DNA of 64,000 nucleotides from Candidatus Latescibacterota bacterium (GCA_965207885.1 OZ242311.1:6112001-6176000); one strand, 5' to 3'. Counted from the stretch's first letter, positions 1 to 41,757 are shown. A program made the numbers and translations. The notes: generated by a model from the sequence alone, not told the origin.

Positions 1-554
1 GTAATTGCCAGTGCCGTGGTGACTGACCAGAAAAGCGGCATTGACCAGGCCCCCCAGGGGACACTTCCGCCAGGTCCCAGACCCTGGTAGAATCCCTCCA
101 GTACTCTGGGGGCGTTGATCGGGTACATCCACCAGGGCAGGTGGTCGAAAATCAGTTCCTCCCAGCGGTTCTCGGGCGACGCCAGATACCTCGGTCCGGC
201 CATCTGTCCCACCCATTGGCTCGCCCAATTGTACCCGACGAATAGCCCGCCGATCCAGAGCACGCAAAGCATTAATCGAAGTTCCGCAGAGGTCAGCGAA
301 AAGCGCGGCATGAACCGCTTCAACAGTGTATTGCCCAGGAGCCAGAACACAAATGGCAGCAGCGCGGTCATCGGCAGGTTGGATACGGCCATTCGCACAG
401 ACCTGGTTCTCATTTCCAGGTACATAGACGCTATGCAGCCCAGTGCCAGGGTGGCTACCGCAATCAGCACTATTCCCCACCGCACCCGCCCGGCTTCGGC
501 CACCGCTTTTGCCGCTTGAACTTCGTGGCTCAACGCTCCAGATGGCTGTGCCAT
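1..554 (-). CDS. DUF6785/DUF6784-type multi-pass membrane protein (putative transporter); 5' part only, runs off the window start
   Basis: Not in the ORF track. ATG at 554 reads MAQPSGALSHEVQ...LGNTLLKRF...YLASPENRWEELIFDHLPWWMY, clearly paralogous to 6597..8582. Confidence 0.8.
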   Translation of the reverse strand, partial: MAQPSGALSHEVQAAKAVAEAGRVRWGIVLIAVATLALGCIASMYLEMRTRSVRMAVSNLPMTALLPFVFWLLGNTLLKRFMPRFSLTSAELRLMLCVLWIGGLFVGYNWASQWVGQMAGPRYLASPENRWEELIFDHLPWWMYPINAPRVLEGFYQGLGPGGSVPWGAWSMPLFWSVTTALAI

Positions 555-602
555 GGCACAATCTCCGGTGATACTTTCCAACACGCTTGCCGTCGAATAA
601 TG

Positions 603-1460
603 CTAATCCCTGGGTACTCCTGCTTCTTTGAAAGCGTTGCTCAGGGCTGTGTAGGAACGGCGCGCGGTATCCACGGTATCGAATCTCTTCTGTGACCAGA
701 TACGGGCGCTGACCTCCAGGGTGATATAATCGTCCCAGCCAGCTTGCGCCATGGCCCGCATATAGGCGGTAGAATCGAGTTCGCCGTCACCCAGAACGCG
801 AAAATCAAACGAACCATCCGCATGGCGTTGCGCATCGGTGATGTGGGTGTGCCCGGTGACGGGAACCAGATCCCTGACGCACGCTTCGATGGAATCCCCG
901 GCAAGGTAAAAGTGAACAATATCAAAATGGAGGCGAAGGTAGGGGCTATTCACTTTTTGAATGACCTCCAGCGCCCGCACCGACCGGTCAACGCCCGCGC
1001 CGCAGTGAGCCTCTCCCGCAATGACAATCCCTTCTTTCTCGCCCAACTCTGCGTAATCCCGAAGTCGGACGACGATTCCATTTTTGTCCCTGTCCCAGGC
1101 TTCGGTCTTCCCGCCAATGCCAATGGAAATGACGATGGGTTCGCGGTATCCGAAGTCTCGCGCCAACTGCACGGTCTCCCGGGTTGTCTCCAGATTTCGA
1201 GCGTGGAGATCCGCATCGGGCTCCCAGGCTTTGGGCCCCACCAGCATCAATGCCGGCACGCCGAGTTGTTGTGCTTCGAGTATTTTCCGAATGTTGCTTC
1301 GTCTGGTAGAATTGTAATCGGCGGGAAGTGCATTCTCGTGCTTATCTCCAATGTAGATCTCAACACCGTCATACCCAATGGACCGAATCAGTGGAATTGC
1401 CTGCTCCAGGGGTATGTCGGGCATGGCGTAGGTGCCGTAGGCAATTTTCATGGCGTTCAT
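603..1460 (-). CDS. Sugar phosphate isomerase/epimerase (xylose isomerase-like TIM barrel)
   Basis: GYDGVE, metal-ligand motifs GEAH, FDIVH, HTHITD, TLEV, and G.G.LD. Confidence 0.85.
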   Translation of the reverse strand: MNAMKIAYGTYAMPDIPLEQAIPLIRSIGYDGVEIYIGDKHENALPADYNSTRRSNIRKILEAQQLGVPALMLVGPKAWEPDADLHARNLETTRETVQLARDFGYREPIVISIGIGGKTEAWDRDKNGIVVRLRDYAELGEKEGIVIAGEAHCGAGVDRSVRALEVIQKVNSPYLRLHFDIVHFYLAGDSIEACVRDLVPVTGHTHITDAQRHADGSFDFRVLGDGELDSTAYMRAMAQAGWDDYITLEVSARIWSQKRFDTVDTARRSYTALSNAFKEAGVPRD

Positions 1461-2542
1461 TCAATCAAAGGCACCTTTTCTACATTTCCGCTCGCTATGG
1501 AAGCTGCGATGGCATGGAGCAGTGCTGTGGTGCGGGCCGCATCTGCAAAATCCGATCGGATTGCAGAGGACAACGAAGGGTTGCGGATGGCGTTTAAAAA
1601 TACTTCTATTTCTTCAAAATGTGGGGGATCGGGTGGATCTTGCGGTCGTCGGTTGGGGTGGATTTCGCCGCTTCGCCCCATGGCTGGTCCCTGTGGAAAT
1701 TGTTCGGTAATGCTTTTGGGTTTTTCATCTGGTGCTCCGACCATACCTTCAATTCTGGGGGGGATGGTGGAAAGCGAGAGCCGAATATCCCTGCCGAAGA
1801 AGGTGATGTCGTCCCGCCTTTGTGCACAGGCCCAGGATAGGAGAACACAGCCGATTGCTCCGGAGGAGAATTGGAGATTGATCGACATGCTGTCTTCGAT
1901 GGTGAAGCTGTCGCTGATGGGGATTGTCAGGTTGCTGCCAAAAGCGTGTACAGCGTCAATATTACCTGCGATATAGCGGATTACATCGAGGGTGTGGATC
2001 GTGTTGTCGAATAGCGACCCACCTTTTTCTTTGAGGTAAAACCAGTCGGCTCCGAGATTGCGGGTCAATCCCGGGCTGGTTATTACCGCGGCATCTACCA
2101 GATTGATCTGTCTGCCTTCCAATAGCTCCATGCATCGATCTACAGAGGGCGCATAGCGCTGGTTAAAGCCGACGCTGTGAATTAGTCTGGTGTTCTGCAG
2201 GAGTGCGACGATTTCACGCGCTTCTCGCAGGGATTGGGCGGGCGGTTTTTCGCAGAGGAAGGGTACATTGTATTGCACGGCGGCCTGTATGACTGGCTTG
2301 CGAAGAACGGGAGGCGTGCAGATGAGTATCGCATCCAGGTCCTCGATTTCATCAAAGATTTTTTCCCAATCTGTGTATGCTTGCGCCCCGTAAGCAGCGG
2401 CTTTGGCGCGCGCCAGGTTTTCGTCCAGGTCGCATATCGCGGCGATGCGATTGCCGCCGAGAAATGCGAGGTTTTCAAGGTGTCGCGTGGCGATGTTTCC
2501 CGCGCCTATTACGGCTATGTTGATAGATCTCTCTCGATCCAT
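1457..2542 (-). CDS. Gfo/Idh/MocA family oxidoreductase
   Basis: IAVIGAGNIA Rossmann motif, CEKP, VGFNQRY, IHTLD. Confidence 0.9.
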   Translation of the reverse strand: MDRERSINIAVIGAGNIATRHLENLAFLGGNRIAAICDLDENLARAKAAAYGAQAYTDWEKIFDEIEDLDAILICTPPVLRKPVIQAAVQYNVPFLCEKPPAQSLREAREIVALLQNTRLIHSVGFNQRYAPSVDRCMELLEGRQINLVDAAVITSPGLTRNLGADWFYLKEKGGSLFDNTIHTLDVIRYIAGNIDAVHAFGSNLTIPISDSFTIEDSMSINLQFSSGAIGCVLLSWACAQRRDDITFFGRDIRLSLSTIPPRIEGMVGAPDEKPKSITEQFPQGPAMGRSGEIHPNRRPQDPPDPPHFEEIEVFLNAIRNPSLSSAIRSDFADAARTTALLHAIAASIASGNVEKVPLIE

Positions 2543-2554: not shown

Positions 2555-3325
2555 TCAGAATTCTCGCACGCCTTCAAATTCTCGCCAGATATCTGTCAGC
2601 ACTTCGGTCCCGTTTTTCTGGATATCTACGTGGTTTAGACGGAAGATCACTGCATACCGGATATGCGGCGACAGATTGGGTCCGGCTGCGTGTACCATCT
2701 GGTGATGCACCAGCACTGCGTCTCCTGCTTTTGCGGTGATCTGCACCGGGCGATGGGGCAATTCTTCTCTCAGTCTGGGCAGGTCCTGGAATAACTGGCC
2801 GTGTCCGTTTGTGCGAAAATACGACTCCAGATAATGGTGGGATCCCGGCCATACTGTAAAATTGCCCATATACGGCTCGGGCAAGTCCGACAGCATTACC
2901 ACGCAAATAGCGGTAAAGTTTCGCCAGAATTCTCCTTCGGGCACTTTGGTTTTTTTGCCGCCCATTCCGTCGATGTGTCCCGATAGTATCACAGATGCCC
3001 GGTCTTCCATCTTGGGAAATGGCAACGCGATCTGTCCGCTTCCAATTGGTCGGAGTTTCCCTTTTCCCATCAGGGATTCGGCTATCTTGAAGATCGGCGT
3101 CTCATTTACCAGACTGGCGTAGAATGGGTCTGGATGATTCTTGTGAGAGTAATACCCATTGTACAGTGTAAGCGGATAGTCTCCTCCCGGAATCATCCCT
3201 GTGCTGCCCAATTCATGGTTAATTTTTTTTACTGCTTGTGTCACCATGTGCTCTGGAATCACGCCTTCTATCTTGAGATAGCCCTGTGCTTTGAAAAATG
3301 CTTTTTTTTTGGCGGTCATTTTCAT
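2555..3325 (-). CDS. Phytanoyl-CoA dioxygenase (PhyH) family Fe/2OG enzyme, canonical HxD
   Basis: F..QGYL, HID, VWPGSH, AGDAVLVHHQMVH...R. Confidence 0.85.
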   Translation of the reverse strand: MKMTAKKKAFFKAQGYLKIEGVIPEHMVTQAVKKINHELGSTGMIPGGDYPLTLYNGYYSHKNHPDPFYASLVNETPIFKIAESLMGKGKLRPIGSGQIALPFPKMEDRASVILSGHIDGMGGKKTKVPEGEFWRNFTAICVVMLSDLPEPYMGNFTVWPGSHHYLESYFRTNGHGQLFQDLPRLREELPHRPVQITAKAGDAVLVHHQMVHAAGPNLSPHIRYAVIFRLNHVDIQKNGTEVLTDIWREFEGVREF

Positions 3326-3340: not shown

Positions 3341-5188
3341 TTATGGACATCCCGCGTGAAAATTTCCAATGGCTTCCGATGTGCGCAAGTATCGGTTGTA
3401 TATCCGCAGGGCTTGAAGTCCGGGGCCGATTCGAAGCGTTTCAGTCCCGTTGGCGTGTCTTAGATTTGGACTGAACCGCCCCCAACCAAACTGGCGATTT
3501 TCACCTCCATCGCAGAGTTTGCCATCTACCACAAATGTGATGATCCTGGGACCGCCATCTACAATTGCCGCAATGTGGTGCTGTTCGCCTGTGCGCAGAT
3601 AACCGGAATCGCAGTCCCACCGGTTTTCGGTTCGCCCGTCGTTTAATACAATCTCGACGGTACCCCGCTCTGTGGTCTGCACGCACATTCCCTGTCCGTT
3701 CTCCAGCCTGCTGTCCAGCAGTATCTGTCCAGCATGCAGTGATGGTAGTCTTAGCCACAGATCAATGGTAAATCCCTGTCGAAGATCTCGCGTTGCATAA
3801 GGACTGGCGCTGTCTCGCTCGTTGAATGCTGGCAAATCCGGCATTTTTGCCTCGCTCGAATCTGGCAGGGACAGGTCCAGTAAGAGACCTTCGGTGGCTA
3901 TTTCCCTATTTTCAGCCTGTTCCCACAAGCTCTCCAGCAGGGAGGTGTCCAGCTCGTGTACGCGAGCTATGTCCTTCTGGGTTTCCGTAAGATAATACTT
4001 CCCGCCGTCTTCCACCAGGTCTGGATAGCTCATGCGGATGTACGGGTCGTCGTCGTAGAGCGCGATTTCTGGTTGTGACCACTGGATTATACGGCCTTCT
4101 GGCGCGTCTGCTTCGACTCCGCTGCACAACCACACCGGGTTGCGGTCCTGATAAGATATTGAGCGCCGGTCCGGGTGCTCTCCGATAAACCGCCCTCCGT
4201 GGTTGTGAAACCAGTAGAGAAATTTTCCATTTTCGCATTGCCACGCGAAATTAGCCGCTCTCGGATGTTTCATGCGTCGTCCGTCCGCAAAGCACTGATA
4301 TACCGGCTCTGTCCATGTATGTCCGTTGTCCCGGCTGTACGCGCATACCGGGTACCCATCAATTGAACGGTACACGCTGTAAAACGACCCATCGCTCAAG
4401 CGGCTGTAGCTGTGTTCTTCGGAGACTGGACCTCCCCCCGGTGGCGTCCGCAGCCCTGCATCGCCATCTGGAAGTGTTTCCCAGGCTATTTTCTGCGGGT
4501 CCTGTTCTGTCAGGATATTTTCGCTTTTTAGGAGTACGCCTTCCGAACGGGTGAAAAATCCCATCCCGAATCCTCCCACTTTGTGCAGCGATACGTACGC
4601 GGCCCGATCATCGGCAATCGCTTTGCCCACGTTCCAGAAATACCGCAGTTTGCCCCCGTCCGCATTCTCCCGGTCAATCGCCATTTCTCGCACCGCAATC
4701 GGGTAACGTTGCGCCGACCAGGTCCGCCCGTGATCGTCGCTGTATTTGAACACAAAATGTCCCAGCGAATCTACCCGGGTACAATATCCGTCTCTATAAG
4801 GTGGGTTGTCTCCTTTCACTTTTCGGACATTGTCCGTGTTGTGATTGTAAAATACGTAAATCCGTCCGTATGGGACCTTCAGCACTACTGCATACGATGC
4901 CTCAGGTCCGTGTGCAGGCTCCACATCGACCAGATCCGTCCAGGTCTGTCCGCTATCGGTACTGCGCGTTGTCACTACGTGCTGCCCGTGCGCGCCTTCT
5001 CGACCCGTTCCCGTTGTCATAACACATAGCCAGGCCCCGTCATCCGTTTTTACCACATAGGGCTGATCGCAATATCCTTTGCTGGGAATTTCCCAGCCGT
5101 TTGCAATGTGACGCCAATCCGGAATCTCGGAGATGGTTTCTGCGGTCAGGCTCTGGTCTGCAAGTGCTGCGTTCTGATTTTTAGGCAT
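3341..5188 (-). CDS. BNR/Asp-box beta-propeller (sialidase-like) with C-terminal LamG-like jelly-roll
   Basis: Asp boxes STDSGQTW, SDDHGRTW, SRDNGHTW; C-terminal FTIDLWL, HHIAAIVDG, LRIYNRYL LamG-like motifs. Confidence 0.75.
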   Translation of the reverse strand: MPKNQNAALADQSLTAETISEIPDWRHIANGWEIPSKGYCDQPYVVKTDDGAWLCVMTTGTGREGAHGQHVVTTRSTDSGQTWTDLVDVEPAHGPEASYAVVLKVPYGRIYVFYNHNTDNVRKVKGDNPPYRDGYCTRVDSLGHFVFKYSDDHGRTWSAQRYPIAVREMAIDRENADGGKLRYFWNVGKAIADDRAAYVSLHKVGGFGMGFFTRSEGVLLKSENILTEQDPQKIAWETLPDGDAGLRTPPGGGPVSEEHSYSRLSDGSFYSVYRSIDGYPVCAYSRDNGHTWTEPVYQCFADGRRMKHPRAANFAWQCENGKFLYWFHNHGGRFIGEHPDRRSISYQDRNPVWLCSGVEADAPEGRIIQWSQPEIALYDDDPYIRMSYPDLVEDGGKYYLTETQKDIARVHELDTSLLESLWEQAENREIATEGLLLDLSLPDSSEAKMPDLPAFNERDSASPYATRDLRQGFTIDLWLRLPSLHAGQILLDSRLENGQGMCVQTTERGTVEIVLNDGRTENRWDCDSGYLRTGEQHHIAAIVDGGPRIITFVVDGKLCDGGENRQFGWGRFSPNLRHANGTETLRIGPGLQALRIYNRYLRTSEAIGNFHAGCP

Positions 5189-5193
5189 ATTTT

Positions 5194-6558
5194 TTACTGA
5201 CTCTCTTTCCAGTTCGGGTTGTACAGTTCTCCTGGCATTGTCGAGTGTATCAACTCATACACGCCGTAGCGCCGCCGGTCTTGAAATACGAAGAGATACC
5301 GCTTTGACCGATCGTAAGTCCATTTTTCTATTGCGCCTGCAAAATTCTCTGACGACTGTTCGAAGTCCCGATCGTCGGGCGGGCCGTATTTGATGTACAC
5401 GCGGCCCTTGTCCGTATCTGAACCTCGTTTATGGGCCTCTGACCCAAAGTGTTCATCTGCAAACTGAATCCGGGTCATGTGTTCTCGCAATCGTTCGTTC
5501 AACGGCGTGCCGGGCGTTGGATCCATCTTTTTCCAGAATGCTTTTAAGAAGTCCATGCGTTGCGCTTCAGTGGTCAGCCCTGCATAGCTGTTGAGATCTT
5601 TGCTCGGTGCTATATACCGGATGTCCTTAAAATACCGGAGCTGATCCTGTGCCTCTTCGCTCAACTCATCGGAAAACAGGAAGATCGCCCTGCGCTGTCG
5701 CACATGCTCCCGAGTGCCCCGGTCAAATGCTTCCACTTGAAAAAAATAGACGCCCGCATTTAGTCCGTCTGTCTCGATTGTCTCTGTCTTGACAAAACTC
5801 TCTCCCGATACCCGGATCCGGCGAGAAGGAAATTTTTTTATCTGCATTCCGGAAGAGTCGGTAAAGCTGTATCCCAGAATCAGCGGCTCTGCAGGTTGGT
5901 CTTTTTGGCGTTTCAAATTGTAAATTTCAAAATAAACGCGCACAGGTTCGCCCACCCGGTACCGATGGCTGACATTGGGTACTATATTCCACCCGTTTTT
6001 TACAAATTTTCCAGCTTCCCCTTGTGGCGTGATTTTTGTGGCAAATAACAAATCGCTGATCGACAGGTCTTTTCGATCAAAATTTCGCACTTGAAGCCAC
6101 TCCTCAAAAGTCCCCGTCTTTCCGCTGTAAGTATCCTCGGCCAATAGCTCAAGCCGGTAGGTTTTTGGGGGCAGGTCCAGTCCCACTATCTCCCGAACCA
6201 CGGCACCTTCTTGTCGGGGTGCGTTCATATCTGGAACTGAGATATTCTGCGTCCAGGTTTTGACCTTTGCCTTTTGTCCAGTTGAATCCGATAGGGTTAC
6301 TGCATACTGCAACTGAGCTACAAATGCGTCTTCCTGGGGTACAAATTGGAGCGACTGGGCATCTACTACCGTGCAGATATCTACTCGTGTGAATCCTTTT
6401 GGGCCTCGAAATCCCGTTGTTTCTACAACGATTTGCAACGCTTCAGGGGTCTTTAACGATGGGTCTTGAATATCCTGTGCCCTAACGGACGAGATACCCG
6501 ACAGATGGATGAGTACGGCCGGAACGATTGTAAACCAGACCACATAATAGAGTTTCAT
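5194..6558 (-). CDS. GWxTD domain protein, secreted, GWxTD domain C-terminal
   Basis: Signal peptide; FW..MDPTPGT..NE, GSDTDKGRVYIKYGPPD, EKWTY. Confidence 0.85.
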   Translation of the reverse strand: MKLYYVVWFTIVPAVLIHLSGISSVRAQDIQDPSLKTPEALQIVVETTGFRGPKGFTRVDICTVVDAQSLQFVPQEDAFVAQLQYAVTLSDSTGQKAKVKTWTQNISVPDMNAPRQEGAVVREIVGLDLPPKTYRLELLAEDTYSGKTGTFEEWLQVRNFDRKDLSISDLLFATKITPQGEAGKFVKNGWNIVPNVSHRYRVGEPVRVYFEIYNLKRQKDQPAEPLILGYSFTDSSGMQIKKFPSRRIRVSGESFVKTETIETDGLNAGVYFFQVEAFDRGTREHVRQRRAIFLFSDELSEEAQDQLRYFKDIRYIAPSKDLNSYAGLTTEAQRMDFLKAFWKKMDPTPGTPLNERLREHMTRIQFADEHFGSEAHKRGSDTDKGRVYIKYGPPDDRDFEQSSENFAGAIEKWTYDRSKRYLFVFQDRRRYGVYELIHSTMPGELYNPNWKESQ

Positions 6559-6596
6559 GGTTTACCTCCAGCGCTGGATGCAGATACGGGTCGAAA

Positions 6597-8582
6597 TCAC
6601 CAGCTGTGAATCAAGTGCCCTTGGTCCGGGAACCAGATAAAATCGATTAACGCTCCCACAGCCAGCGATAAAATAAATCCCACAATTAAACCATAGCAGG
6701 CCGGTTTGAGTCGTCGGTAAAGCTGAATTCCCCCGAATCGCAAAACGATAAACTTGGCCAGCCACACGAGGAAGATATTCAGCATGTACACGCGGATCGG
6801 ATATAGCGTAAACAGCATCAGTCCCAGGGGATGGGCGGGCCACCACGGCAGTCGCGCCTGTAAGAGTCCAAATAGTACGGCTACCGCACCCCCTAAAATC
6901 CAGGTCGTGGCTTTGGCCAGGTCAAATACTGGGCGTTGCGTATTGGCCACCTCGCCAGCAATGCGGTTGAGGGTGCTTCGAGGTGCCCGCCGCATTAACC
7001 ACTCGTCCATGTGAATGCCGCCGAACTGATAACACAGCCAGACTGTGTATATAATGGTGACCAGCATGCCCAGGATCACCCCGCCCCAGATCAATCCCGA
7101 TGTGTTCCGGACACCTTCCCGGAGCCTGGCCACGTGGGGGATGGCCTGTGGCACCCGCCAGCCAGCCAGCAGATGGTTGTTCACCAGCCCCTGTCCCACC
7201 AGTGAAGATTCCGAAAACCCCCGCGTGCCCAGCAGGCTCAGGCTGTTCGCGGGAAAGGGGGGATAAATGTAGGGAAATCCACTGGCTGCCAAAAATTTCA
7301 TCGCCGCAAATAGCCCCATCGCAAATAGCCCCACCCACAGAAGTGCCAGATGCGGTTCGTACCCTGCGTGCATTACCCAAAAAAATAAATACAAAAGGCT
7401 TCCCAACAGGATAGCCAATGCCATCCGGGGCGATAGTATCGCTGTCTCGGCCTCTTCTCCCGGTACCGATGTTCGGACCTGCTGGAATACCCGCTTCAAG
7501 TGTCCTCGTGCCACCCACACAGCCCATACTACCAGCCCCACCATCGCTCCGCTGGTAAAAATATTCAGAATTTCTGCGCCATCGGCCGTTTGTCCGGCCA
7601 GTCCGATGGAAAATCCCGTGCGGTTCATCCCGTACAGCGCCGTCATTGCTATCGCATAGACCGACCATATTCCAAAGAGGATGTCTAAGTTGCACAAAAA
7701 CGTAAATCCCATCAAGTTGGGCAGCAGGCGAACCTGAAGCGTATTGGGCGGCAAATGCCGCGATATGTCGATCAATCTCCGCTGGTGAATTACCCATAGC
7801 TCGTTGCGGGGAAAATCCGGCACAAACCACGATACCATATCCAACAGTTCCGGCAGGGCCGCAATAAAAAATCCCACCCAGAACGCCCAGGCGCGCATAA
7901 AAGGCGGCCACCCCCGGCGCCGGTCAAACCCGGCGGTCAGTTCCTGCGCCACTTCTGATAGGGGAAAAGCCAATCGCTCGTGCCGCGCCCACTGTTTTTG
8001 AAAAATCGCGGTCAATCCCAGTCCAATGCCCGTTATCGCCAGCGCGGCTGACATGGCCCAGAAGGCTGGCGCCACCCACGCGGCCCACGGCACGGCTTCT
8101 CCGTATTCCAGGCCTTCGTAAAACCCCCGTAGGACGCCGGGCGAGTCCGCCAAAAACATCCACCAGGGCAGGTTGTCAAAGATCAATTCCTGCCAGCGGT
8201 TCTCCGCGGATGCGAAATACCGCGCCGCCCCTACCCGTCCAGCCCAGGCCGTGGCCCAGTTGGTGCCCGGAAACACGCCACCTACCCACAGGGTGCAAAA
8301 TAACAAGCGGAGTTCGCCCGAAGACAGCGATACTCCGGGCCAGAGCCGTTTGAGCAGGCTGTTGCCCAGCAGCCAAAAGACAAATGGAAATAGCACGGCC
8401 ATTGGCAATGTCGCCATTCCCATTCGCACGGTGCGGGGTTTCATCTCCACATACGTCGCCATTACGCAGGCGAGAATTAGTGTGATACCCGCTACCAGCC
8501 AGACTTGCTTGCGCACGCCCAGAGATTCAGGCGGAGCAATTGCGGCGGTATTGCGTCTCAGCGTTTCAGAAGGTTGAGCCAT
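6597..8582 (-). CDS. DUF6785/DUF6784-type multi-pass membrane protein (putative transporter)
   Basis: Many TM helices; FASAENRW, QKQW...ERLAFP, WP.HPLG, C-terminal WFPDQGHLIHSW. Start moved to MAQPS (8582) by comparison with the paralog at 554. Confidence 0.8.
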   Translation of the reverse strand: MAQPSETLRRNTAAIAPPESLGVRKQVWLVAGITLILACVMATYVEMKPRTVRMGMATLPMAVLFPFVFWLLGNSLLKRLWPGVSLSSGELRLLFCTLWVGGVFPGTNWATAWAGRVGAARYFASAENRWQELIFDNLPWWMFLADSPGVLRGFYEGLEYGEAVPWAAWVAPAFWAMSAALAITGIGLGLTAIFQKQWARHERLAFPLSEVAQELTAGFDRRRGWPPFMRAWAFWVGFFIAALPELLDMVSWFVPDFPRNELWVIHQRRLIDISRHLPPNTLQVRLLPNLMGFTFLCNLDILFGIWSVYAIAMTALYGMNRTGFSIGLAGQTADGAEILNIFTSGAMVGLVVWAVWVARGHLKRVFQQVRTSVPGEEAETAILSPRMALAILLGSLLYLFFWVMHAGYEPHLALLWVGLFAMGLFAAMKFLAASGFPYIYPPFPANSLSLLGTRGFSESSLVGQGLVNNHLLAGWRVPQAIPHVARLREGVRNTSGLIWGGVILGMLVTIIYTVWLCYQFGGIHMDEWLMRRAPRSTLNRIAGEVANTQRPVFDLAKATTWILGGAVAVLFGLLQARLPWWPAHPLGLMLFTLYPIRVYMLNIFLVWLAKFIVLRFGGIQLYRRLKPACYGLIVGFILSLAVGALIDFIWFPDQGHLIHSW

Positions 8583-8689
8583 GTCGTAAAAAAAAGAAGC
8601 GTATCCCCTGCGATAGCGCATACCAGGTATGGCTCAGGATACGCTCTGGCTGTGATTTATGCAAAGGAAATCCAGAGAAATCAGCGCCA

Positions 8690-8894: not shown

Positions 8895-11800
8895 ATGAAA
8901 AAAATTGCAATAGTGTTTCTCGTTATTCTGTGTTCGGCATCGGTGGTATATGCCGGCACAACCGGTAAACTTACCGGGACCGTCAAAGATGCAGCCGGGC
9001 AGGTTTTGCCCGGTGCAAATGTCGTCGTCCAGGTAGAGGGTATTCTGGTGGGTGCTTCTACCGATGCGGACGGACAGTTCTTCATTCTGGCCGTTCCGCC
9101 AGGCCTGCATACCGTCAAGGCATCGATGGTCGGATACCAGGATGTCACGCAGACCGAGGTTCGCGTGAAAATCGATCAGACCTCAACGCTGAATTTTAGC
9201 CTCCGCGAAGAGGTCCTCGCTGCCGAAGAAATGGTTGTTGTGGCCGAACGACCACCCGTCGAAGTCGATTTGACCGGCAGCAAAGCCGTCATGTCATCAG
9301 TCGAACTCGACCGGAGCTTTGTCGCCAATATCAAGCAAGCTGTAGATACGCAGCAGGGCGTCAACTACAATGGCGGCATCCGCGGTGGGTTCGGTCTGGA
9401 TGTTTCCTATTATGTCGATGGTATGGAGTTGCGCGATGGTGCGTCCAACTCCAACTGGACGGGTATCAACACTTCCACAGTGCAGGAACTGGAGGTCCTG
9501 TCGGGAGGGTACAATGCCGAATACGGCCGCGCCAATGGCGCTGTGATCAATATGGTGACCAAATCGTCGAGGACCAGGGTCCACAGTACGCTCGATTACA
9601 AAATGCGCCCCGCTGGCATCTATCACTGGGGCGGGCATATTTACGGCCCTGAGCGCTACGAAAACCGCGTGATGAGCAATCCGGATTGGTGGAATAATCA
9701 CCCACCACCCGGCTGGTTCGGGACGGGCCACGTCACTGCGGCAGACGAGTACAAGAAAGGGCTTCGCGATAATCGCGATGGCGTGAATACGGCCCTGGCG
9801 CAGCACTGGATCATGAACTACCTGACTGCGCCCTGGATACAGGATTTAAAAGAGTACGACAAACGCACGCAGCACGGATATGAAGGCACGCTCTACGGTC
9901 CCCTGACCAAAAGGGCTTCTTTTATGGCTTCGGGCAGGTACTACAAGGGCGTTCCCAAATATCCTTCCGCATTGAATTACAACCCGGAATGGAACTTACA
10001 GAGTTCCCTGACTTTTGATGTCACTCAGAATTCAAGGGTTAAACTTCAGGGGATGCACGGCGGGTTTAACAACACGGACCAGTTCCGCACGCTGTACGGT
10101 TCCAGCGAGGACAATGGCTTGTGGCAGAACCGCAGCGGTGCGCATATTGCGTATCCCTCCAATAGCTGGAAATTTTTCCCCTTTGTGGCTCAGGGCACCC
10201 CGAGCCCGACCCCCCGAGCTCCCGAATACGTGCGGATGTGGAGCGGGCAGGCAAAGCTGACCCATATCTTTGACCCCAGAACATTTCTGGATGTCAATTT
10301 GAGCTACTTCTGGTATTTCCGCGAAGCCAATTACAGGCGGGACAATTTGTGGAAGACCAGCCACGCCGCCTATTCGAAGGGTTTTGACTGGAACGAAGTG
10401 CTGGTTGAGGAGGAAAACAAGCGCCTGACCAGGGGCCTGCCATTTCACGGCGTTGGCAGAATCTCCGGGATTCCCGGTTGGGGCCTCAACTACCCCGGCG
10501 ACCACGCCCAGGATTACGCCAAGGCCTATAACTATACCATCAAGGCCGATTTTACCAAGCAGGTCGATGATGTGCATCAACTGAAGGCCGGGCTATACGG
10601 ATCTTACCAGTTTTTCGACCGGTACTTCCACTTCGGGTATATCAGCACAGCCTGGGTCACAGATCCGATTGCCCGGGATACCAATCCCTATGAAGGTGCG
10701 ATCTATATTCAGGATAAGATCGAGACCATGGGCATGATCGTAAATGCCGGGCTGCGGGTGGATATGTACAATGTCAATGCTTATGTCAGCGATGACGTCT
10801 TCGACCCGCTTCGGATCGATCAGGATACGCCGGGCAATGTCAAACAGAGCGAGATATCCATCGGCGATCCCTATGGGTATAAGAATATTTCCAGTACTGA
10901 CGAGTTTGCAGAACACACGCCCACGCAGTGGGCAATCTCGCCCAGAATCGGTATTTCCCACCCCATTACAGATAGGACCGTGCTGCACTTTATGTACGGG
11001 CATTTCAATCAGCGGCCTTCGTGGCAAAAGATGACCAACACGCCTTTTATGCAATTGAGGCCCTATCCCGAGACTGATCCCATCCTCACACCGCTGCCAG
11101 CGGACTACGGACAGAAGCACGGCTATTCTTATACGCACTGGGCAGGTGCCGGAAATCCCGGTCTGGAGTTCGAAAAAATGATCCAGTATGAGGTCGGCTT
11201 CGATCAGAATATCGCCGATTTGCTCAATCTGGACGTGACCCTGTATTACAAGGATGGCAAGAATCTGACGGCCGCCGGATTCAGGAATGATGAGAGTTTT
11301 CTCGCCTATTACGGGACATATACCGGTACGGGCCACCGCTTGTTCCCCGATTTTAACGGCCTGGGATCCAGGGGACCGGGCAAGAGCGGGAGTCTGGTGG
11401 TTAACGGCAATATGTTTTTCCAGGATGTGCGGGGGTTGGAAATAACGATGGATAGCCGCTTCCAACAGTATGCCCACTTCAAGTTCCACTACAATTTGTC
11501 TTATTCGAATACCGGCATCTATGGACTGCGGAATGTCTATCGCGTTCAGCCGGATGGGCAGAAGGCGCGTCCGGACAGCCGTCACGGTGCGAACAACAGG
11601 GACAAGGGGGTATCTGGCAGAGACAACGCGTACTGGAATCCTCGGAACAGTGCCAAATTGACGGCTACGGTGTTTACACCGGCGAATTTTGGGCCTGTGG
11701 TGGGCGGTTGGAGACCCCTGGGCGATTGGAACGTGAACCTGCATTCCACCTGGAATCAGGGCTTCAAATATACCTACCACTCGCCGGGCGATCCATCTAC

Positions 11801-14254: not shown

Positions 14255-14284
14255 CCCTGTTACGGATAATTGGAGGACAGACTA

Positions 14285-15352: not shown

Positions 15353-15376
15353 AATCGTTCGAGATTTTCAAATATG

Positions 15377-15419
15377 CAAACGCCAGTGCAGGTCTTTGTT
15401 GCACTGGCGTTTGTTTTTG
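15377..15419 (+). terminator. Rho-independent terminator
   Basis: Perfect 14-bp stem CAAACGCCAGTGCA / TGCACTGGCGTTTG followed by a T-tract, just after the PorV-like gene. Confidence 0.85.
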
Positions 15420-24541: not shown

Positions 24542-24554
24542 GGGGTCTCCTTTT

Positions 24555-26975: not shown

Positions 26976-27130
26976 TAGAAAAACCCCCGCGGTGTAAAGT
27001 AGGTAAAAGGCGTCTTTGAATGCACTCAAGACGCCTCTTCATAGGATAAGATCAGGTAAATGTATGGTCTTTTCATCATTCAAGGTCTGACCTGTTATTG
27101 TCTCTCATAATCTATAATTGAAAACCGAAG

Positions 27131-35616: not shown

Positions 35617-37959
35617 TTAACGGTTGATTATGAACGCGCCCTTGGTCTTGCGACCGCGACTGGCAGGCACGAGCGACTCCACCACGAAGAAGTACGCGGA
35701 CGAGGTGGCTTCACCGGTGAGGAAGCGATCTTTCAAAAGCCACTGCGCTTCCCCGGCCGTTGGATCGTTGTGGTTGATTTCGGCAACGAGATCTCCCGAA
35801 ACCGTAAAAATGGAGATTTTTGCCTGGTGCGGTACCCCGACAAAGCGCAGTTTGAGCGTGCCCTGATAATTGGATTGGGCTTGCGCCAGGCTAAACGGAT
35901 TGGGCACCACGACTACCGGCCTCTCCATATTGTCGGCGGCGTCATTGGCGGCCAAAATTGGGCTGCCCGGAACGATCATGCGCTGTTCGGCCGCTGACCA
36001 TCCGCTCTCCAATCCGTTTTCCGTGAGGTGCTTGCGCACGGTCTCGGGCAAATCGTCCAGGGTTTTGGAGCCTTCGGACCAGGACGATTTGGGGCTGGCA
36101 ACAGAGCGCACATTGTAGGCAAATTGGAATCCGGCCAGCGAATTTTCATCTATCCAGGTGTACGTGCCGCCCTGGCTACTACCGGCTGGAACCGTGCCCA
36201 CCAGATCCCACGGTCCGGTTTCCTGCCAGGTCGAGCGATAGACCCGATAGGCGACCACATCGGCCTGACCGTATTCGGGGTTGATGGCTTTTTCAGCGGC
36301 ATCTGACCACGTCAGGGTAATTTTGGCCTGTGCATTGCTCCCCTGGAAGAAATCCACATCCGGGGGTGCGTTGGGTATCTGGTACTCGTTGTCGTAGGTA
36401 AATTGCGCGTGGTTCAGATGCCGCAGCATGGCTTCTTCGCCTTTGGCCAAAAGCGATTTGCGGGCGTCTGGACCAATATCGCCCACGTTCCACGACCACT
36501 TGGTAATGTCGTTGGCATAACCCGTCTCGGCGTTGATCTCAAATTCGGCTGATGATCCAAAGCCGTAGGCCAGCACGATTTTGGCTTTTTGTCCGGGTGC
36601 CAGGCTGTAGGGACCAAAGATCAGGTCTTCCCACTGCATTTGTTCAGAGGGCGGGTTGTCCATTGTGGGCGAGGTGAAAAAGTCGTACTGGGCGGCCATG
36701 CTCAACGCGCCCCGCGTGGGGTCGTCGATGTTGCGGCGGCCGAATACTTCGTACCAGTGCGACAGGGGTTCGCCCTGTGGATCGACAAAGCCTTCCGCTG
36801 CGTCTGCGGCGTTGAATGTGTGACTCGCCCCGGCATTGCGAAATGCGAGCGGTGCCATAAACTGATAGGCCGGTGCAATGGGCATGCCCTCGGGCCTGTT
36901 CCTGCTGCCCGGGAAGCCCCGCGCTTCCAGGTCCGAGAAGTAGGGATCGCCCGTGTCTTCTTCAAAGCTGGACGGGGAGTTGCCATCCCACTGGTACATG
37001 ATGTATTTGCCCTGGAAATCCGCAGGTGACAATCCGCTTAAGGGATTGTTTTCGAAGTTGGATGCTTCGCTATAGCGATAGTGGTCGTCCAGCGCCTGAC
37101 TGCGGCGATAGGTGACCAGGCCGCCTTCATGACCCCAGCGGAAAGATGTGCCAGCACTATTGACATACATGGAGTTCATGACGCCAAAGTAGGTGTTGTC
37201 GAGTTGTTGTCCGCCCCGATTTTCAAACTCGAGTTCCAGGATGAAAAAGTCGTCGAAATCCTGATGGCTCCACGCATGGGCTTTGCGCGTTACGACCACG
37301 TTGTGCTTTGTCTGCCATTGCGTGATATGGATTTCTTCGCCTGCATTTTGTACGGGCGGATAAATGCCGTAATCGAAGTTGTGAATTTCGTAGGGTCTCA
37401 AATTGGCCGGGTCAGCGGATTGGGGCGAAGCACCTTGCCACCAGTTGGATTTTACCGTGCCTGGACCCACACCGCGATTGGGCACAATGGACTGGATGCC
37501 CCACGAGGATTCTTTGGAGTTGGCGATGTCGTAATTCATCGGTATCACGTCTTCGGTGGGGGTGCGCGGGCCTGTGACCGATACGTATTTTTCGCCGCCC
37601 ACATTGGTCAATACCAGCACACCTTCACCGGCCGAGTGCATGTTTGTAAAGCCCTTTTGTGCGGACGATCCCCATGCTTTGTCGCCCCAGTATTCCACAA
37701 ATTCTTCGGTGCCCAACAGGGCGTACAATGAGTACAATTCGCCCGGGTAGGACATGCGCATCATTACCCGAGATGGGGTTACCTGATAGTGCATGCTCGA
37801 AGTACCGGAGTTGGTAAACGAGAGCCATACCAGCGACCGGGTCATGTGCCGCGACGCGCTATAGACCACCTGCGCTTGTGAATCTATTGTGCCGATTGAC
37901 ATGAGGCACAATACCATCAGACCCGGCAACCATTGTCTTTTCAAGTTTTTCAGATACAT
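35617..37959 (-). CDS. Secreted protein with T9SS type A-like C-terminal domain
   Basis: Signal peptide; WS...DDF.I.E, GPY.LAPG and YRVYRS shared with 12137..14254; CTD VVVVPNPF..ISIFTVSGDLV..KGAFIINR. Confidence 0.75.
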   Translation of the reverse strand: MYLKNLKRQWLPGLMVLCLMSIGTIDSQAQVVYSASRHMTRSLVWLSFTNSGTSSMHYQVTPSRVMMRMSYPGELYSLYALLGTEEFVEYWGDKAWGSSAQKGFTNMHSAGEGVLVLTNVGGEKYVSVTGPRTPTEDVIPMNYDIANSKESSWGIQSIVPNRGVGPGTVKSNWWQGASPQSADPANLRPYEIHNFDYGIYPPVQNAGEEIHITQWQTKHNVVVTRKAHAWSHQDFDDFFILELEFENRGGQQLDNTYFGVMNSMYVNSAGTSFRWGHEGGLVTYRRSQALDDHYRYSEASNFENNPLSGLSPADFQGKYIMYQWDGNSPSSFEEDTGDPYFSDLEARGFPGSRNRPEGMPIAPAYQFMAPLAFRNAGASHTFNAADAAEGFVDPQGEPLSHWYEVFGRRNIDDPTRGALSMAAQYDFFTSPTMDNPPSEQMQWEDLIFGPYSLAPGQKAKIVLAYGFGSSAEFEINAETGYANDITKWSWNVGDIGPDARKSLLAKGEEAMLRHLNHAQFTYDNEYQIPNAPPDVDFFQGSNAQAKITLTWSDAAEKAINPEYGQADVVAYRVYRSTWQETGPWDLVGTVPAGSSQGGTYTWIDENSLAGFQFAYNVRSVASPKSSWSEGSKTLDDLPETVRKHLTENGLESGWSAAEQRMIVPGSPILAANDAADNMERPVVVVPNPFSLAQAQSNYQGTLKLRFVGVPHQAKISIFTVSGDLVAEINHNDPTAGEAQWLLKDRFLTGEATSSAYFFVVESLVPASRGRKTKGAFIINR

Positions 37960-37980
37960 AGATATGATCCTCCTGTCAGA

Positions 37981-40900
37981 TTAGAACTTAAACCGCGCCC
38001 CGGCCACGATGGTTCGGGGTCTGCCCAGCCCGCCGTTGTAGCGGGTCAGTTCGGAAATATCGCCGAAAGTATCGAATTTGCTGTCTCCGGGCGGCGGTTT
38101 CTGGAGGCCGTACTGGATCCAGCGGAAGCCAGTACTCGTATCGTCGCGCTGCCCAAAGAGATTGCGGACTTCCAGGAAGGTTGTGGCTGTACCCGTCTGC
38201 CCCAGTCCAAAGTCTTTTTCAAAGCTGACATCTGTCAGTGTGGAGGGCGGGCCGTTGCGCCGTTCCCTGGGTCCCGTGGGTGGCGTGTACCAGAATGCGC
38301 CCCTGGTGTGCATCTGCCAGACCATGGTCGCGCGGAATCCGGCCAGAGCAGTAATGTGGAAATCCGGCGGTGCAGAGAAGAGGAATTGCACGCTGGCAAA
38401 GTTGCGCCTGTCCAGACCGCCATCTAAGGTGGGAATGCTGTAGTTGGCGATGTTGAAGGAGTATAGCCCGTCTTCGACGAGGACTGGCTGTTCCCAGAAG
38501 GCATTGCTCTTTGGTTCCATCACATCTGCTTTGGCTTTGTATTTCAGGGCAATTTCATTGGCTTTCTCTGCGAATGCCCTCCGTTCTTCGGCCGTTGGTG
38601 CGCGGGGCACTTCCTGTCCGTCGGCTTGCACGGTGACGCCGGCAAAGAATTTGTCGCTGTTCACATATTGAGCCGTGGGAGCGATGAACCATTCCCAGGA
38701 TGATTTGCCGCCACGGTGCGCTTTGGCCCAGTTGACGTTGTAGGCCACATACAGGGCGGTCATCTGGCTGAATTTTTTCTGGAAGGACAGCTCAAATCCG
38801 CGGGATGTGGCAAAGCGGCGATTGAAGAATGCGTGGGTATATGAAGAGTTGAAGCCAAATACGGGTTCGTCGATGAAGAAGTCCGATCCGCCGCTGGATA
38901 GCGTGCCTTCCTGGTCTTTGTAAAAAGCCGTCAGGCCCAGGACGTAATCGCCGTAGAAGTTGTAGTCGAAGCCGACCTCAAAGTTGGTCGTGCGTTCGGG
39001 TTTCATGTGGACATTGCCAAATTCGCCCGCCAGCGGATAGACCAGGGCGTTGAAAATTTCCATCTGGTCGATTTGTCCGTTGCCATTCAGGTCTTTGTCC
39101 GGTCCCGTCGCCCGCCATGTGCGGTTGTAAAGGCTTTGCAGACCGATGAACTGGTGGAAGCGTCCGGTGAAAAATCGGATGGTGGAACGATCTGTGATGG
39201 GGTGTGAAATACCCAGGCGCGGGCTGATGGCCGTCTGCGTGGGCGAATCTACGATGGGTACGTTTCGCCAGCGCGTCAGCGAGTTGTAGTGGTTCCAGGT
39301 GACGTGGTCCATGGCGCGGCCAAAGGATTCGCCGGGCGCGAGGACTTCGTAGCGCACACCCAGATTGACGATCAGGCCCTCAAATTCCATTTTGTCCTGA
39401 ATATAGGCCGCGTAGGTCGCGGGATTAAAAGGTTCCATGCCCACGATGGGGTCGCCCTTGCCCAGCAAGCGGATGTTGCGTTCGCGGGTTGTGTTATAGA
39501 CCACATCTTGCTGTTCGATGCTGTTGCGGATGATTTCAAAGCCGGCTTTTACAAAGTGTCCCCGCGTCACCTGGCTGGACAAATCGCCTTTTAGCAGGAT
39601 GCGCGTGCGCTGCGCCCAGCTAAAGGCGTGGATATCTCGCGTGCCGTAAAATCCGTTTGCACCGCGGACGATATCGGTTGTCTGTGACGGTACGTCGCTG
39701 GTATCGAGGGATGTGCTCTGGAAAGATACGCGGACTTCGTAAAATGTTTTGGGCGATATGGTGTGTGTCAAGACGCCGTAAAATACCTGATCGGTGCGCG
39801 GCGACTTGCCCGAGGAGCTATACCCTGCGGGCAGGTAGAGGTTGCGCCCGCTTTCCGAGATGCCCCGCACGCCGCCCGGCGGCACGCCCGTGGTTGCACC
39901 ACCCGGACCGCGTACCACACTGGTCGAGCCGTTGTTGAACCCGTCTTTGTACACCCATGTGGTGCCGAGCTTAACTTTGTACTTGTCGCCCGGCCGATAG
40001 GTCGCATTGGCCGATGTGTTCAGGTTAAAGGGCGCGTGATTGGAGGGTCCTGGAAAAACGGATGCCTGCCGATCTGTATAGGTGCTGAGGAAGAATCCGA
40101 GTTGTGGGTTAATCGGTCCGGAGACGTTGCCTTCCAAAAAATGTCCCAATGCTTTGTCGTAATCCGAAGGCGTTGAATCTATATTGGGATTGCCGGTGTC
40201 CGGAGTTTTGCCCTCTAACAGCGGGCTGTTATAGACATTCGCACCCCAGTGCTTTAGCCCCGGCAGGGTCAGGCGGTATTCGCCCAGGCCACCGTATCGC
40301 TCTTTGGCTTCGCGGCTCACCAGGCTGATTACGCCGCCCTGTGCATTGCCGTATTCGGCGTTCATGCCGCCAGTGACGACGGCGACTTCTTGCAATGCGC
40401 CGCGCGCCAGGCTGTTGACCTGTGAGGCTGTGTTGTTTTCGGCTACGCCATCGTCGTTGGACAGGCGAATGCCGTCGATTTCCACAAAGACTTCATTGGT
40501 GCCATTGGTTACCGAGGCGGTGTGGCTTGCGCGGATGCGCATGGCGCCGTCCAGGGATACACCCGGTTGCAATTCGATGACCTCTGCCGCGTTTCGCGCA
40601 AGGGGAACCTGTTCGACCTGTTCGACGCCGACAATATAGCGACTCACGGTTTTATCGGGTTCCACGGCAGGTCGCTCGGCAATGACGACCAGTTCGCCGA
40701 GTTCTACGGCTGCTTCCTGGAGTACGATATTTACTGTGGTGGTCAATTCGACCTGTACCAGCACGTTTTGTATGGTTTCGGTGCGGTAGCCGACCAGGGA
40801 TGCTTCCACTTCATGTACGCCCGGATCGACAGCTAATATTAAAAAATAGCCGTCTGTATCGGTTACAGCGCCGCGCCGCGTGCCTTTTACTACGACGTTG

Positions 40901-41043
40901 ACGCCGGGTAGTGCCTCACCCTGGGCATCTTTCACCACACCGGTGACTTTTCCTGTTGTAGCTGCCATCCCATCGCTTGGATAGAAGACGCATAGCGCGC
41001 CGACCAGGATCAGGAGACAGCCCAAACGAATGTTAAAACGCAT
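37981..41043 (-). CDS. TonB-dependent receptor
   Basis: TTGKVTG.V.D..GE.LPGVNV, TGGMNAEYGNAQGGVI, YIQDKMEF, SPRLGISHPIT, terminal Phe. Confidence 0.92.
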   Translation of the reverse strand: MRFNIRLGCLLILVGALCVFYPSDGMAATTGKVTGVVKDAQGEALPGVNVVVKGTRRGAVTDTDGYFLILAVDPGVHEVEASLVGYRTETIQNVLVQVELTTTVNIVLQEAAVELGELVVIAERPAVEPDKTVSRYIVGVEQVEQVPLARNAAEVIELQPGVSLDGAMRIRASHTASVTNGTNEVFVEIDGIRLSNDDGVAENNTASQVNSLARGALQEVAVVTGGMNAEYGNAQGGVISLVSREAKERYGGLGEYRLTLPGLKHWGANVYNSPLLEGKTPDTGNPNIDSTPSDYDKALGHFLEGNVSGPINPQLGFFLSTYTDRQASVFPGPSNHAPFNLNTSANATYRPGDKYKVKLGTTWVYKDGFNNGSTSVVRGPGGATTGVPPGGVRGISESGRNLYLPAGYSSSGKSPRTDQVFYGVLTHTISPKTFYEVRVSFQSTSLDTSDVPSQTTDIVRGANGFYGTRDIHAFSWAQRTRILLKGDLSSQVTRGHFVKAGFEIIRNSIEQQDVVYNTTRERNIRLLGKGDPIVGMEPFNPATYAAYIQDKMEFEGLIVNLGVRYEVLAPGESFGRAMDHVTWNHYNSLTRWRNVPIVDSPTQTAISPRLGISHPITDRSTIRFFTGRFHQFIGLQSLYNRTWRATGPDKDLNGNGQIDQMEIFNALVYPLAGEFGNVHMKPERTTNFEVGFDYNFYGDYVLGLTAFYKDQEGTLSSGGSDFFIDEPVFGFNSSYTHAFFNRRFATSRGFELSFQKKFSQMTALYVAYNVNWAKAHRGGKSSWEWFIAPTAQYVNSDKFFAGVTVQADGQEVPRAPTAEERRAFAEKANEIALKYKAKADVMEPKSNAFWEQPVLVEDGLYSFNIANYSIPTLDGGLDRRNFASVQFLFSAPPDFHITALAGFRATMVWQMHTRGAFWYTPPTGPRERRNGPPSTLTDVSFEKDFGLGQTGTATTFLEVRNLFGQRDDTSTGFRWIQYGLQKPPPGDSKFDTFGDISELTRYNGGLGRPRTIVAGARFKF

Positions 41044-41058
41044 GCTGAACCTCCGTTA

Positions 41059-41757
41059 TTATTTGGGGAAATACAACTTGAGCCGAACACCTATGTTGAG
41101 TTTGTGAAATGGGAATGCCTCTTGTAAGCCCCAGGCTTCGAGGGGGCGCACGTGGCCCCAGATGACGTGGTATTGTGCCCGAAGGTCAAACGCAAAATTC
41201 TGAGAGGCGAAGTATTCGACGCCCACACCGGCGTTTATGCCCAGAGCCGTGCGAACATCTGATTCGGGACGCTGTGTCAAATTGGTGTCCAGCGTGCCGC
41301 TCTGACCGGGATAAATTAATCCGCTGATTTCGTTGTTGTAGTGGTAAAAGCCCGATCCGATGACGAAGTAGGGCGCGCCACCCCCGGTGTTCAGTTTTTC
41401 ACCTCCGCCGTTGAAGTGGTAAAGATAGTTGGCGGTTACTGTAAACCAGGTCATTTCCGAACTGGCGTTGGAGCTTTCGTATTCCTGCAGGTCAACGGAC
41501 CAGAGAAATCTGCGGTTTTCCAGTTCTCCCGATCCGTATTTGGCATACCGCGCGTCCAGTTCAAATGTCCAGGTCGGGTTGTTGATGCGTGAGATTGTTC
41601 CCCCGATGTCAATGCCTCCCGAGGGAAACCACTGGTTCAATTTGAACAGCGGCATGTCGTATTGCCCGGTCACCCCAACAGACCAGGTGCCGTTCACTTC
41701 TGCCACTCCCGGCCCAACAAGGGCCAGACTTAATAACGCTGTTACTATGAATCTCAT
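41059..41757 (-). CDS. Small outer-membrane beta-barrel protein (OmpA/PorT-like)
   Basis: Signal peptide, PYF..G.G, G.N.G.GVEY, alternating beta pattern; RBS AAGGAGG. Confidence 0.75.
   Translation of the reverse strand: MRFIVTALLSLALVGPGVAEVNGTWSVGVTGQYDMPLFKLNQWFPSGGIDIGGTISRINNPTWTFELDARYAKYGSGELENRRFLWSVDLQEYESSNASSEMTWFTVTANYLYHFNGGGEKLNTGGGAPYFVIGSGFYHYNNEISGLIYPGQSGTLDTNLTQRPESDVRTALGINAGVGVEYFASQNFAFDLRAQYHVIWGHVRPLEAWGLQEAFPFHKLNIGVRLKLYFPK

Follow-up and report, generated by a model that had tools for sequence, protein, structure and literature searches.

A recurrent receptor, surface-protein and barrel cassette in a Latescibacterota-like genome, probably a SusD-independent uptake system

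The sequence under study, called the window here, is a stretch of 64,000 nucleotides (nt; G000:6112001-6176000) within the 6.23 Mb single-contig genome of a Latescibacterota-like bacterium. Two loci in it, A and B, each carry a three-gene cassette encoding a TonB-dependent receptor, a secreted protein with a type IX secretion system (T9SS)-type C-terminal domain (hereafter the CTD protein), and an outer-membrane barrel of the PorV/PorQ family. The named close homologues of the window proteins belong mostly to Latescibacterota and Handelsmanbacteria records, and the presence of locus B in sponge metatranscriptomes indicates that the bacterium is probably sponge-associated. Gene families of both loci were assigned with Pfam (E ≤ 0.01, 28 proteins of positions 1-41757) and with NCBIfam cut-offs. 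An initial reading made from the sequence alone (the sequence-only reading) had named these genes, each of which is present, and the order of receptor, CTD protein and barrel is identical in loci A and B, as it had proposed. The features are as follows (aa, amino acids).

1-584, minus strand: 5' part of the second DUF6785 protein among the locus A accessories (Pfam); the whole gene, 676 aa, extends beyond the window start (L037:10555-12585).
2555-3325, minus strand: PhyH protein, locus A (Pfam).
3341-5188, minus strand: protein with BNR repeats (sialidase-like) and LamG, a candidate enzyme for catabolism in locus A (Pfam BNR_2, Laminin_G_3).
5194-6558, minus strand: GWxTD protein, 454 aa, exported, with the domain C-terminal (TIGR04514, 87.5 bits, cut-off 28).
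6597-8621, minus strand: DUF6785+DUF6784 membrane protein, 674 aa, divergent from core A (Pfam; fold via the locus B copy).
8895-12104, plus strand: core A TonB-dependent receptor, 1069 aa, with CarboxypepD_reg N-terminal extension, plug and barrel (Pfam Plug, 30.8 bits, cut-off 23.9).
12137-14254, plus strand: core A secreted CTD protein, 705 aa (structure model; no Pfam or NCBIfam family).
14270-15352, plus strand: PorV/PorQ-family barrel of core A, predicted to serve the CTD protein as its dedicated anchor (NF033709, 169.5 bits, cut-off 90).
15376-15414, plus strand: hairpin resembling an intrinsic terminator at the end of core A (stem of 16 pairs, T tail).
22902-24604, minus strand: two PhyH proteins, locus B (Pfam).
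24555-27029, minus strand: TPR-GWxTD protein, 824 aa, locus B (TIGR04514, 56.5 bits, cut-off 28).
27131-29557, minus strand: M60-like peptidase of locus B, a candidate for glycoprotein degradation (Pfam Peptidase_M60, M60-like_N).
30513-32498, minus strand: DUF6785+DUF6784 protein 2, 661 aa, accessory of locus B, modelled OPT/YSL fold.
32509-34488, minus strand: DUF6785+DUF6784 protein 1, 659 aa, accessory of locus B (Pfam; 70% identical to the neighbouring protein 2).
34489-34614, minus strand: structured spacer that separates core B from the DUF6785 pair and has no U tail (-47.7 kcal/mol, z -4.5, 0 of 200 shuffles).
34615-35598, minus strand: core B PorV/PorQ-family barrel (NF033709, 164.7 bits, cut-off 90).
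35617-37959, minus strand: secreted CTD protein of core B, 780 aa, paralogous to that of locus A (family profile, tail alignment).
37981-41043, minus strand: core B TonB-dependent receptor, 1020 aa (Pfam Plug, CarboxypepD_reg).
41059-41757, minus strand: core B small outer-membrane barrel (OMP_b-brl, PF13505).
G000:3598753 (L039:6972-13253): SprA / PorU-like region, elsewhere in the genome.

The accessory genes are divergent and upstream in locus A, whereas in locus B they lie downstream on the same strand. Identity between the two loci is 28% for the receptor, 28% for the barrel, 22% and 31% for the N-terminal part and tail of the CTD protein, and 27% for DUF6785; a recent duplication of A into B is rejected on these values of only 22-31%, which mark the loci as distant old paralogues. 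The Pfam scan of the 28 proteins gave no SusD, ABC or MFS family, in agreement with the sequence-only reading, although a MATE transporter lies between the two loci at 21517-22899 (Pfam, NCBIfam).

The set had been thought to be present twice, but counts from our own open reading frame (ORF) calls and family hidden Markov models (HMMs) place the trio about 17 times in the genome, which holds 18 CTD proteins, 25 PorV-like barrels, 20 receptor ORFs of the subfamily and 12 small barrels. The barrel gene directly follows the CTD-protein gene in 17 of 18 cases, with a gap of -11 to 58 nt, and a receptor gene precedes it in 17 of 18 (16 intact, one split by an insertion sequence, IS). A small barrel is the first gene in 12/18 cassettes, and all 12 genome copies stand at cassettes. 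Mantel tests of co-divergence gave r 0.79 for receptor and CTD protein (n=16), 0.85 for barrel and CTD protein (n=17) and 0.81 for barrel and receptor (n=16), all at p=0.001, and weak values of 0.10-0.34 for the small barrel against the core. The real unit is a conserved core of receptor, CTD protein and PorV/PorQ-family barrel, often with the small barrel, accompanied by loose accessories.

SusC/SusD (RagA/RagB) is the core of the polysaccharide utilisation loci (PULs) of Bacteroidota. The cassette resembles it in that a receptor with a CarboxypepD_reg extension is followed by a cognate surface protein, in its many paralogues, and in its neighbouring carbohydrate-active enzymes, sulfatases and inner-membrane transporters. 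The co-location of such enzymes is clear in other phyla and at several cassettes of this genome, and weaker in the window, which has the BNR-repeat protein and the M60 peptidase. Unlike SusC, the receptors fail model TIGR04056, scoring 65.2 (A) and 71.1 bits (B) against a cut-off of 368.25 with the N-terminal part alone matching, and a sequence search of the Protein Data Bank (PDB) with receptor B gave a match confined to the N-terminal domain; the partner, unlike SusD, lacks a lipobox and consists of a beta-supersandwich, an FN3-like domain and a CTD. The cassette also has, in nearly every case, a third gene, that of the barrel, and SusD is not adjacent, the one SusD match of the genome being at 5.49 Mb, away from the window. 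The cassette would work like SusC/SusD, yet it is no member of that family. The genome has nine TonB C-terminal matches.

The AlphaFold2 model of the locus A CTD protein has a mean predicted local distance difference test score (pLDDT) of 90.4 and shows a signal peptide, a beta-supersandwich (residues ~28-474), an FN3-like domain (~480-590, boundaries taken from the strand pattern) and a T9SS-type tail (597-705). Over residues 28-474 the model resembles the beta-supersandwich found in GH94, GH15 and GH65-type enzymes, the best match being 5nz7 (Z 17.5, root mean square deviation (rmsd) 3.9, 273 residues aligned), and the tail matches the CTD of PorZ (5m11; Z 12.6, rmsd 2.0, 90 aligned). Foldseek's top matches are fibronectin type III chains. 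The N-termini of the CTD proteins are hydrophobic and signal-peptide-like, and a lipobox is absent from all 18 of them. Neither CTD protein of the window belongs to a Pfam or NCBIfam family, and the Atlas likewise yielded no named family for the CTD protein.

Both barrels pass the family model NF033709, and a barrel profile matches PorV (6h3i) at E 9.6e-29 in a PDB sequence search, but they fail the equivalog models NF033710 and NF033711 (scores of 45 and 70 bits where 250 is required, and of 106 and 75 where 220 is). Since the family model is passed and the PorV equivalog is failed, a role as dedicated anchor fits the barrel better than one as the general PorV shuttle. Complex prediction for the locus A CTD protein with its own barrel scored 0.86 in three runs, while the best of three controls scored 0.00; the mark used for this score was attained by 116/157 solved pairs and 2/215 mismatched pairs. 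Contact agreement was at least 83% and partner pLDDT at least 82, and the predicted interface consists mainly of tail residues 603-705, plus a few contacts of the N-terminal and FN3 domains. The CTD-protein tail is thus predicted to bind its own barrel.

Such an arrangement has partial precedents. According to the available text of PMC10947112, PorQ anchors PorZ, whose CTD stays uncleaved; there, too, a PorV-family barrel holds T9SS cargo by an uncleaved tail, and it is the PorZ CTD that the tail here matches in structure. That pair, however, belongs to the attachment complex and is tied to no importer in the same text, whereas the present genome has 17 cognate pairs, each behind a receptor, and barrels that fail the PorQ/PorV equivalogs. 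PorP-like barrels anchor type B cargo in PorP-PG1035 and SprF-SprB, likewise paralogous FadL-family barrels each holding its own surface cargo, but those systems have type B tails, PorP-like barrels and a PorE or gliding link, and the term TonB occurs 0 times in the main text of the article (PMC9143113, available part). A precedent for the geometry is BamG, a FadL homologue that holds BamH beside BamA in the Bacteroidota BAM complex, so that a FadL-like barrel together with a larger barrel keeps a surface protein over the latter; in that case, however, BamA is the larger barrel, the protein held over it is a lipoprotein, and the complex serves to assemble proteins (PMC12578637, available part).

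Matches to the locus B CTD protein occur in 67/121 genomes of the phylum and are strong in its own family and order. Farther afield, 80 GTDB loci were examined, the best 80 of at least 594 retrieved with a narrow 18-sequence alignment and leaning therefore to one subfamily; several end close to the CTD-protein gene. By HMM detection, 78 of these loci have the CTD protein, 76 the barrel, 70 the receptor and 19 the small barrel; DUF6785 is present in 4, PhyH in 3 and GWxTD in 0. Their labels include Ignavibacteria, Rhodothermales, Marinimicrobia/Fidelibacterota, KSB1, Calditrichota, Delongbacteria, Kryptoniota and WOR-3, among others. Downstream of the barrels (83 of 140 selected genes, E ≤ 1e-12) are GH3, GH20, GH38, GH92, GH94, GH109, GHL10, CBM9, sulfatases, ROK proteins and an SSF symporter. 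In 22 non-Latescibacterota carrier genomes picked from these loci, whose completeness is not stated, SusD was found in 8.

Two further families recur behind the barrel gene of the GTDB loci: one of ~410 aa, lipoprotein-like, at 29/80 (e.g. L061:17356-18582), IPT/TIG-positive in two scanned members and resembling the surface glycan-binding accessory of PULs, and a second barrel-like protein of ~240 aa at 19/80 (e.g. L048:6055-6786), usually followed by the small barrel. The small barrel is thus placed behind the PorV-family gene in many non-Latescibacterota loci, as opposed to ahead of the receptor in this genome.

The DUF6785 protein at 30513-32498 was modelled with a pLDDT of 91.8, and barley YS1 (7wsr) matches DUF6785+DUF6784 over the whole length (Z 22.5, rmsd 4.0, 541 aligned; next match Z 4.7), with Foldseek matches to OPT/YSL proteins at E 1e-7 and a template modelling score of ~0.6. 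On this model DUF6785+DUF6784 has the fold of OPT/YSL transporters (7wsr, 7wst), from which it differs in its 10-13% identity, in the lack of an OPT Pfam match (PF03169, E ≤ 0.01, window proteins) and in its 23-62 copies per Latescibacterota genome. A 110-sequence DUF6785 profile had no sequence match in the PDB at E ≤ 10; PF03169 is carried by 11% of one related Atlas cluster. There are 50 copies in this genome, and five other Latescibacterota genomes have 23-62 matches, the same model being positive in 5/5 of these and in 0/22 of the non-Latescibacterota carriers; of the GTDB loci, 4 of the 5 labelled Latescibacterota bear DUF6785 and 0 of the other 75 do.

Linkage was tested as the presence of an accessory gene within 12 kb of a cassette, against global and local null expectations. 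DUF6785 is so placed at 12/18 cassettes (expected 2.96 global, 3.16 local), with 17/50 copies near a cassette and 33/50 elsewhere. The same trend is seen in three relatives: 14/20 cassettes in G072, 4/6 in G058 and 4/6 in G057, using 43/47, 22/23 and 11/23 of their DUF6785 matches, respectively, and leaving out partial CTD-protein rows (two in G072, one in G058). Mantel r of DUF6785 against the core is 0.11-0.26 and not significant. The suggestion that DUF6785 provides the inner-membrane step is made plausible by the fold together with this linkage, and DUF6785 may be regarded as a lineage-specific OPT-fold accessory with a plausible role as inner-membrane transporter. No paper on DUF6785 was found in the literature searched.

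Taken together, the trio is probably a SusD-independent, PUL-like uptake cassette, in which a surface partner anchored by a barrel does a job like that of SusC/SusD; the earlier proposal of a SusD-independent utilisation locus is supported by the T9SS-type cargo, the PorV-family barrel and the neighbouring enzymes. The CTD protein, of 700-900 aa, would be exported by Sec and then cross the outer membrane through SprA/Sov by means of its tail, which would be kept. The co-encoded barrel is predicted to grip this tail and keep the protein on the surface, as PorQ does PorZ. The N-terminal supersandwich could capture an oligosaccharide-type substrate and hand it to the cognate receptor for import. 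Neighbouring genes are exchangeable: other phyla have carbohydrate-active enzymes together with a surface lipoprotein, and Latescibacterota have DUF6785. The DUF6785 proteins would most likely move products over the inner membrane as secondary transporters, and the GWxTD and PhyH genes are not needed and fall outside the definition of the cassette. A more specific form, held tentatively and at slightly less than an even chance, is that the lid of the receptor is a T9SS cargo kept permanently in the grip of its own PorV-family barrel. The resulting receptor-lid-anchor complex would be a second widespread capture architecture in phyla related to the Fibrobacteres-Chlorobi-Bacteroidetes (FCB) group, with SprA export perhaps lacking the canonical PorLM motor, and in Latescibacterota it would feed a 20-60-copy OPT/YSL-fold branch.

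Several observations weigh against this interpretation. Joint duplication alone yields co-divergence of the core, which marks an inherited unit and not physical contact. PorV complexes have already been solved, so the complex score may reflect likeness and not binding. The type A CTD model TIGR04183 has 12 matches in the genome, none among the 18 cassette proteins (the weakest, below the cut-off, is a longer relative within a similar trio), and CHU_C matched weakly in just 2/39 members of the CTD family. A PorU-like C25 protein is present (1896-codon frame) and could cleave the tail, while conserved aspartates of the N-terminal domain, given below, could be catalytic. The genes near the two copies in the window (PhyH, M60 peptidase, hydrolases, oxidoreductases) single out no glycan. 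Known OPT substrates, in the parts of the sources available, are peptides, glutathione, metal chelates and folates, not sugars; the DUF6785 linkage in G057 is not significant (local null, p=0.16); and the RNA-library contigs described below do not prove a single transcript.

The CTD protein might instead be a barrel-anchored surface enzyme (epimerase, lyase or hydrolase) that works near the receptor without forming a lid. Its supersandwich also matches aldose 1-epimerases (Z ~12) and a GH174 fucanase (Z 13.4), and an alignment of 129 sequences shows 68-81% conservation of residues D172, D173, D216, D232 and D256. However, no acidic or histidine residue reaches 90% conservation, and the GH94, GH15 and GH65-type matches align over the N-terminal part of those enzymes only, the model being without their helical catalytic barrel. 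The supersandwich domain is non-catalytic in these enzymes. The occurrence of one CTD protein per receptor with matched divergence is better suited to a cognate binding partner, and the enzyme alternative is considered unlikely.

Less likely still, the trio could be a secretion or display unit, in which the receptor-like barrel aids export or display of the CTD protein as an adhesin or coat. PorF, which we take to be receptor-like, could point in this direction. It is listed among T9SS components (PMC10947112, available part). SprA is over its cut-off in this genome (TIGR04189, 623.5 bits, cut-off 200) and in 21/22 of the non-Latescibacterota carriers, while GldM and GldN models had no match in this genome, a negative that is uninformative because no control genome passed either cut-off; a TonB-powered partner could therefore assist export. 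Nevertheless, the many diverged paralogues beside differing catabolic enzymes and transporters fit substrate-specific uptake better, and the receptors retain a plug domain (Pfam). As an observation subject to the same limit of the controls, SprA and a PorU-like protein without GldM/GldN matches may indicate a T9SS lacking the canonical motor.

There is a slight probability that the uptake system is the same but that its cargo in this lineage is peptides, glycopeptides or metal chelates and not glycans. The OPT/YSL-fold transporters, the M60 peptidase, S15 peptidase-like and PhyH proteins of the window and one M20 peptidase at another cassette are consistent with such cargo, whereas other cassettes of this genome adjoin heparinase-like, rhamnogalacturonan-lyase-like, sulfatase and sugar-catabolic genes, carbohydrate-active enzymes accompany the cassette in other phyla, and the paralogues may simply differ in substrate.

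The GWxTD family has 35 copies in the genome with signal-peptide-like N-termini, and it lies near 11/18 cassettes (expected 2.02 global, 2.51 local), accounting for 14/35 copies. This linkage is confined to the present genome: the relatives have it at 2/20 (G072), 0/6 (G058) and 0/6 (G057), and the absence from the 80 GTDB loci holds also with a broader HMM that finds 33 proteins in this genome. Mantel r is 0.45 with the receptor (p=0.044, n=7) and 0.11 and 0.23 with the others of the core. DUF6785 and GWxTD occur together at 7/18 cassettes, and two DUF6785 genes with GWxTD at 4/18; away from cassettes their linkage is 3/26 against 2.1 expected. PhyH is near 7/18 cassettes (expected 7.55 global, 7.45 local, from 205 genome copies), and RNA-library contigs of related strains omit parts of the PhyH region. 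PhyH is accordingly rejected as a member, its linkage being at chance level, and GWxTD is rejected as a conserved member outside this genome. The sequence-only reading had joined five families into one system with GWxTD as a partner; the gene-neighbourhood statistics that it called for uphold linkage for the trio and, in Latescibacterota, for DUF6785, but for GWxTD in this genome only and for PhyH at chance, so the five-family system and the GWxTD partnership are not supported. Least probable, and as a general rule already largely refuted, is a single trans-envelope machine with GWxTD bridging the outer-membrane core to the DUF6785 pair. The GWxTD and DUF6785 linkage in this genome and the receptor correlation that favour it are set against the 7/18 joint occurrence, the GWxTD counts in the relatives and GTDB loci, the 0/22 carriers with DUF6785, and G120, where 49 DUF6785 matches are accompanied by partial CTD-protein matches alone and GWxTD has none. 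In G063, by comparison, DUF6785 has 62 matches and the CTD protein two strong ones. A BamE-like fold for GWxTD is unsupported by PDB-profile and Pfam searches: a 69-sequence profile found nothing useful in the PDB, its best match being a PKD-type region at E 0.0013, and Pfam gave weak Ig-like matches only.

Among the RNA-library contigs of related strains, which come from 4 runs in 3 studies with DNA carry-over uncontrolled, one of 7696 nt spans 34364-41887 and all four core B genes, and two link the core B barrel to the first DUF6785 gene. In 4/4 runs contig depth is greater for the core than for the DUF6785 pair, but such depth cannot rank genes and was not used. A hairpin with z ≤ -2.3 lies downstream of 15/17 cassette barrels; scans for promoters and terminators did not differ from chance overall, and the stem at 15376-15414 alone was used.

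No description of the trio was found in the literature searched, which comprised titles and abstract openings, with most subscription papers and supplements outside, and the GWxTD papers matched were irrelevant; in the available part of the Caldithrix genome paper, the TonB passages cover B12 and thiamine, not the trio (PMC5317091). The core cassette is real, widespread and, in that literature, undescribed. PUL finders key on SusC/SusD pairs and would for this reason miss trio loci in Ignavibacteria, Calditrichota, KSB1, Marinimicrobia, Rhodothermales and Latescibacterota. If the interpretation as an uptake cassette is correct, the trio would serve as a marker for glycan-uptake loci in the phyla that bear it, several of which have cultured members. 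It would also place PorV-family barrels and T9SS cargo in a role new to them and assign DUF6785 a function at the level of its fold.

Further features of the cassettes and the window may be recorded. In 7/17 cassette leaders, among them that at window ~41835-41850 (minus strand), the true Shine-Dalgarno site is preceded by an extra strong one at a distance of 60-125 nt; genome-wide it occurs at 9/872 operon-leading genes, 5 of these cassette leaders, and some sites precede an ORF of 2-13 codons. These sites recall STAB-SD mRNA-stabilising elements; an explanation by RNase J is unsupported, as the genome has no match over the cut-off. A DDE_Tnp_1 IS with shared termini lies just upstream of several cassettes (window 42121-43245; L026:1094-2218 and 5765-6889; L035:13849-14973), and the same type splits the one interrupted receptor gene. 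The 361 aa protein encoded at 15699-16784, directly past the locus A terminator, matches neither a Pfam nor an NCBIfam family and is without a paralogue in the genome. An MNT-HEPN-type toxin-antitoxin pair (nucleotidyltransferase and HEPN) occupies 29671-30415, between the DUF6785 pair and the M60 peptidase. An IS605-family TnpB (OrfB, Cas12f1-like TNB domain; Pfam) is found at 53626-54750, followed at 55796-64000 by a defence-island-like stretch with an HTH-SNF2 helicase bearing NOV_C, a weak Mrr-like match, DUF2806 and an OLD-type ATPase/TOPRIM protein.

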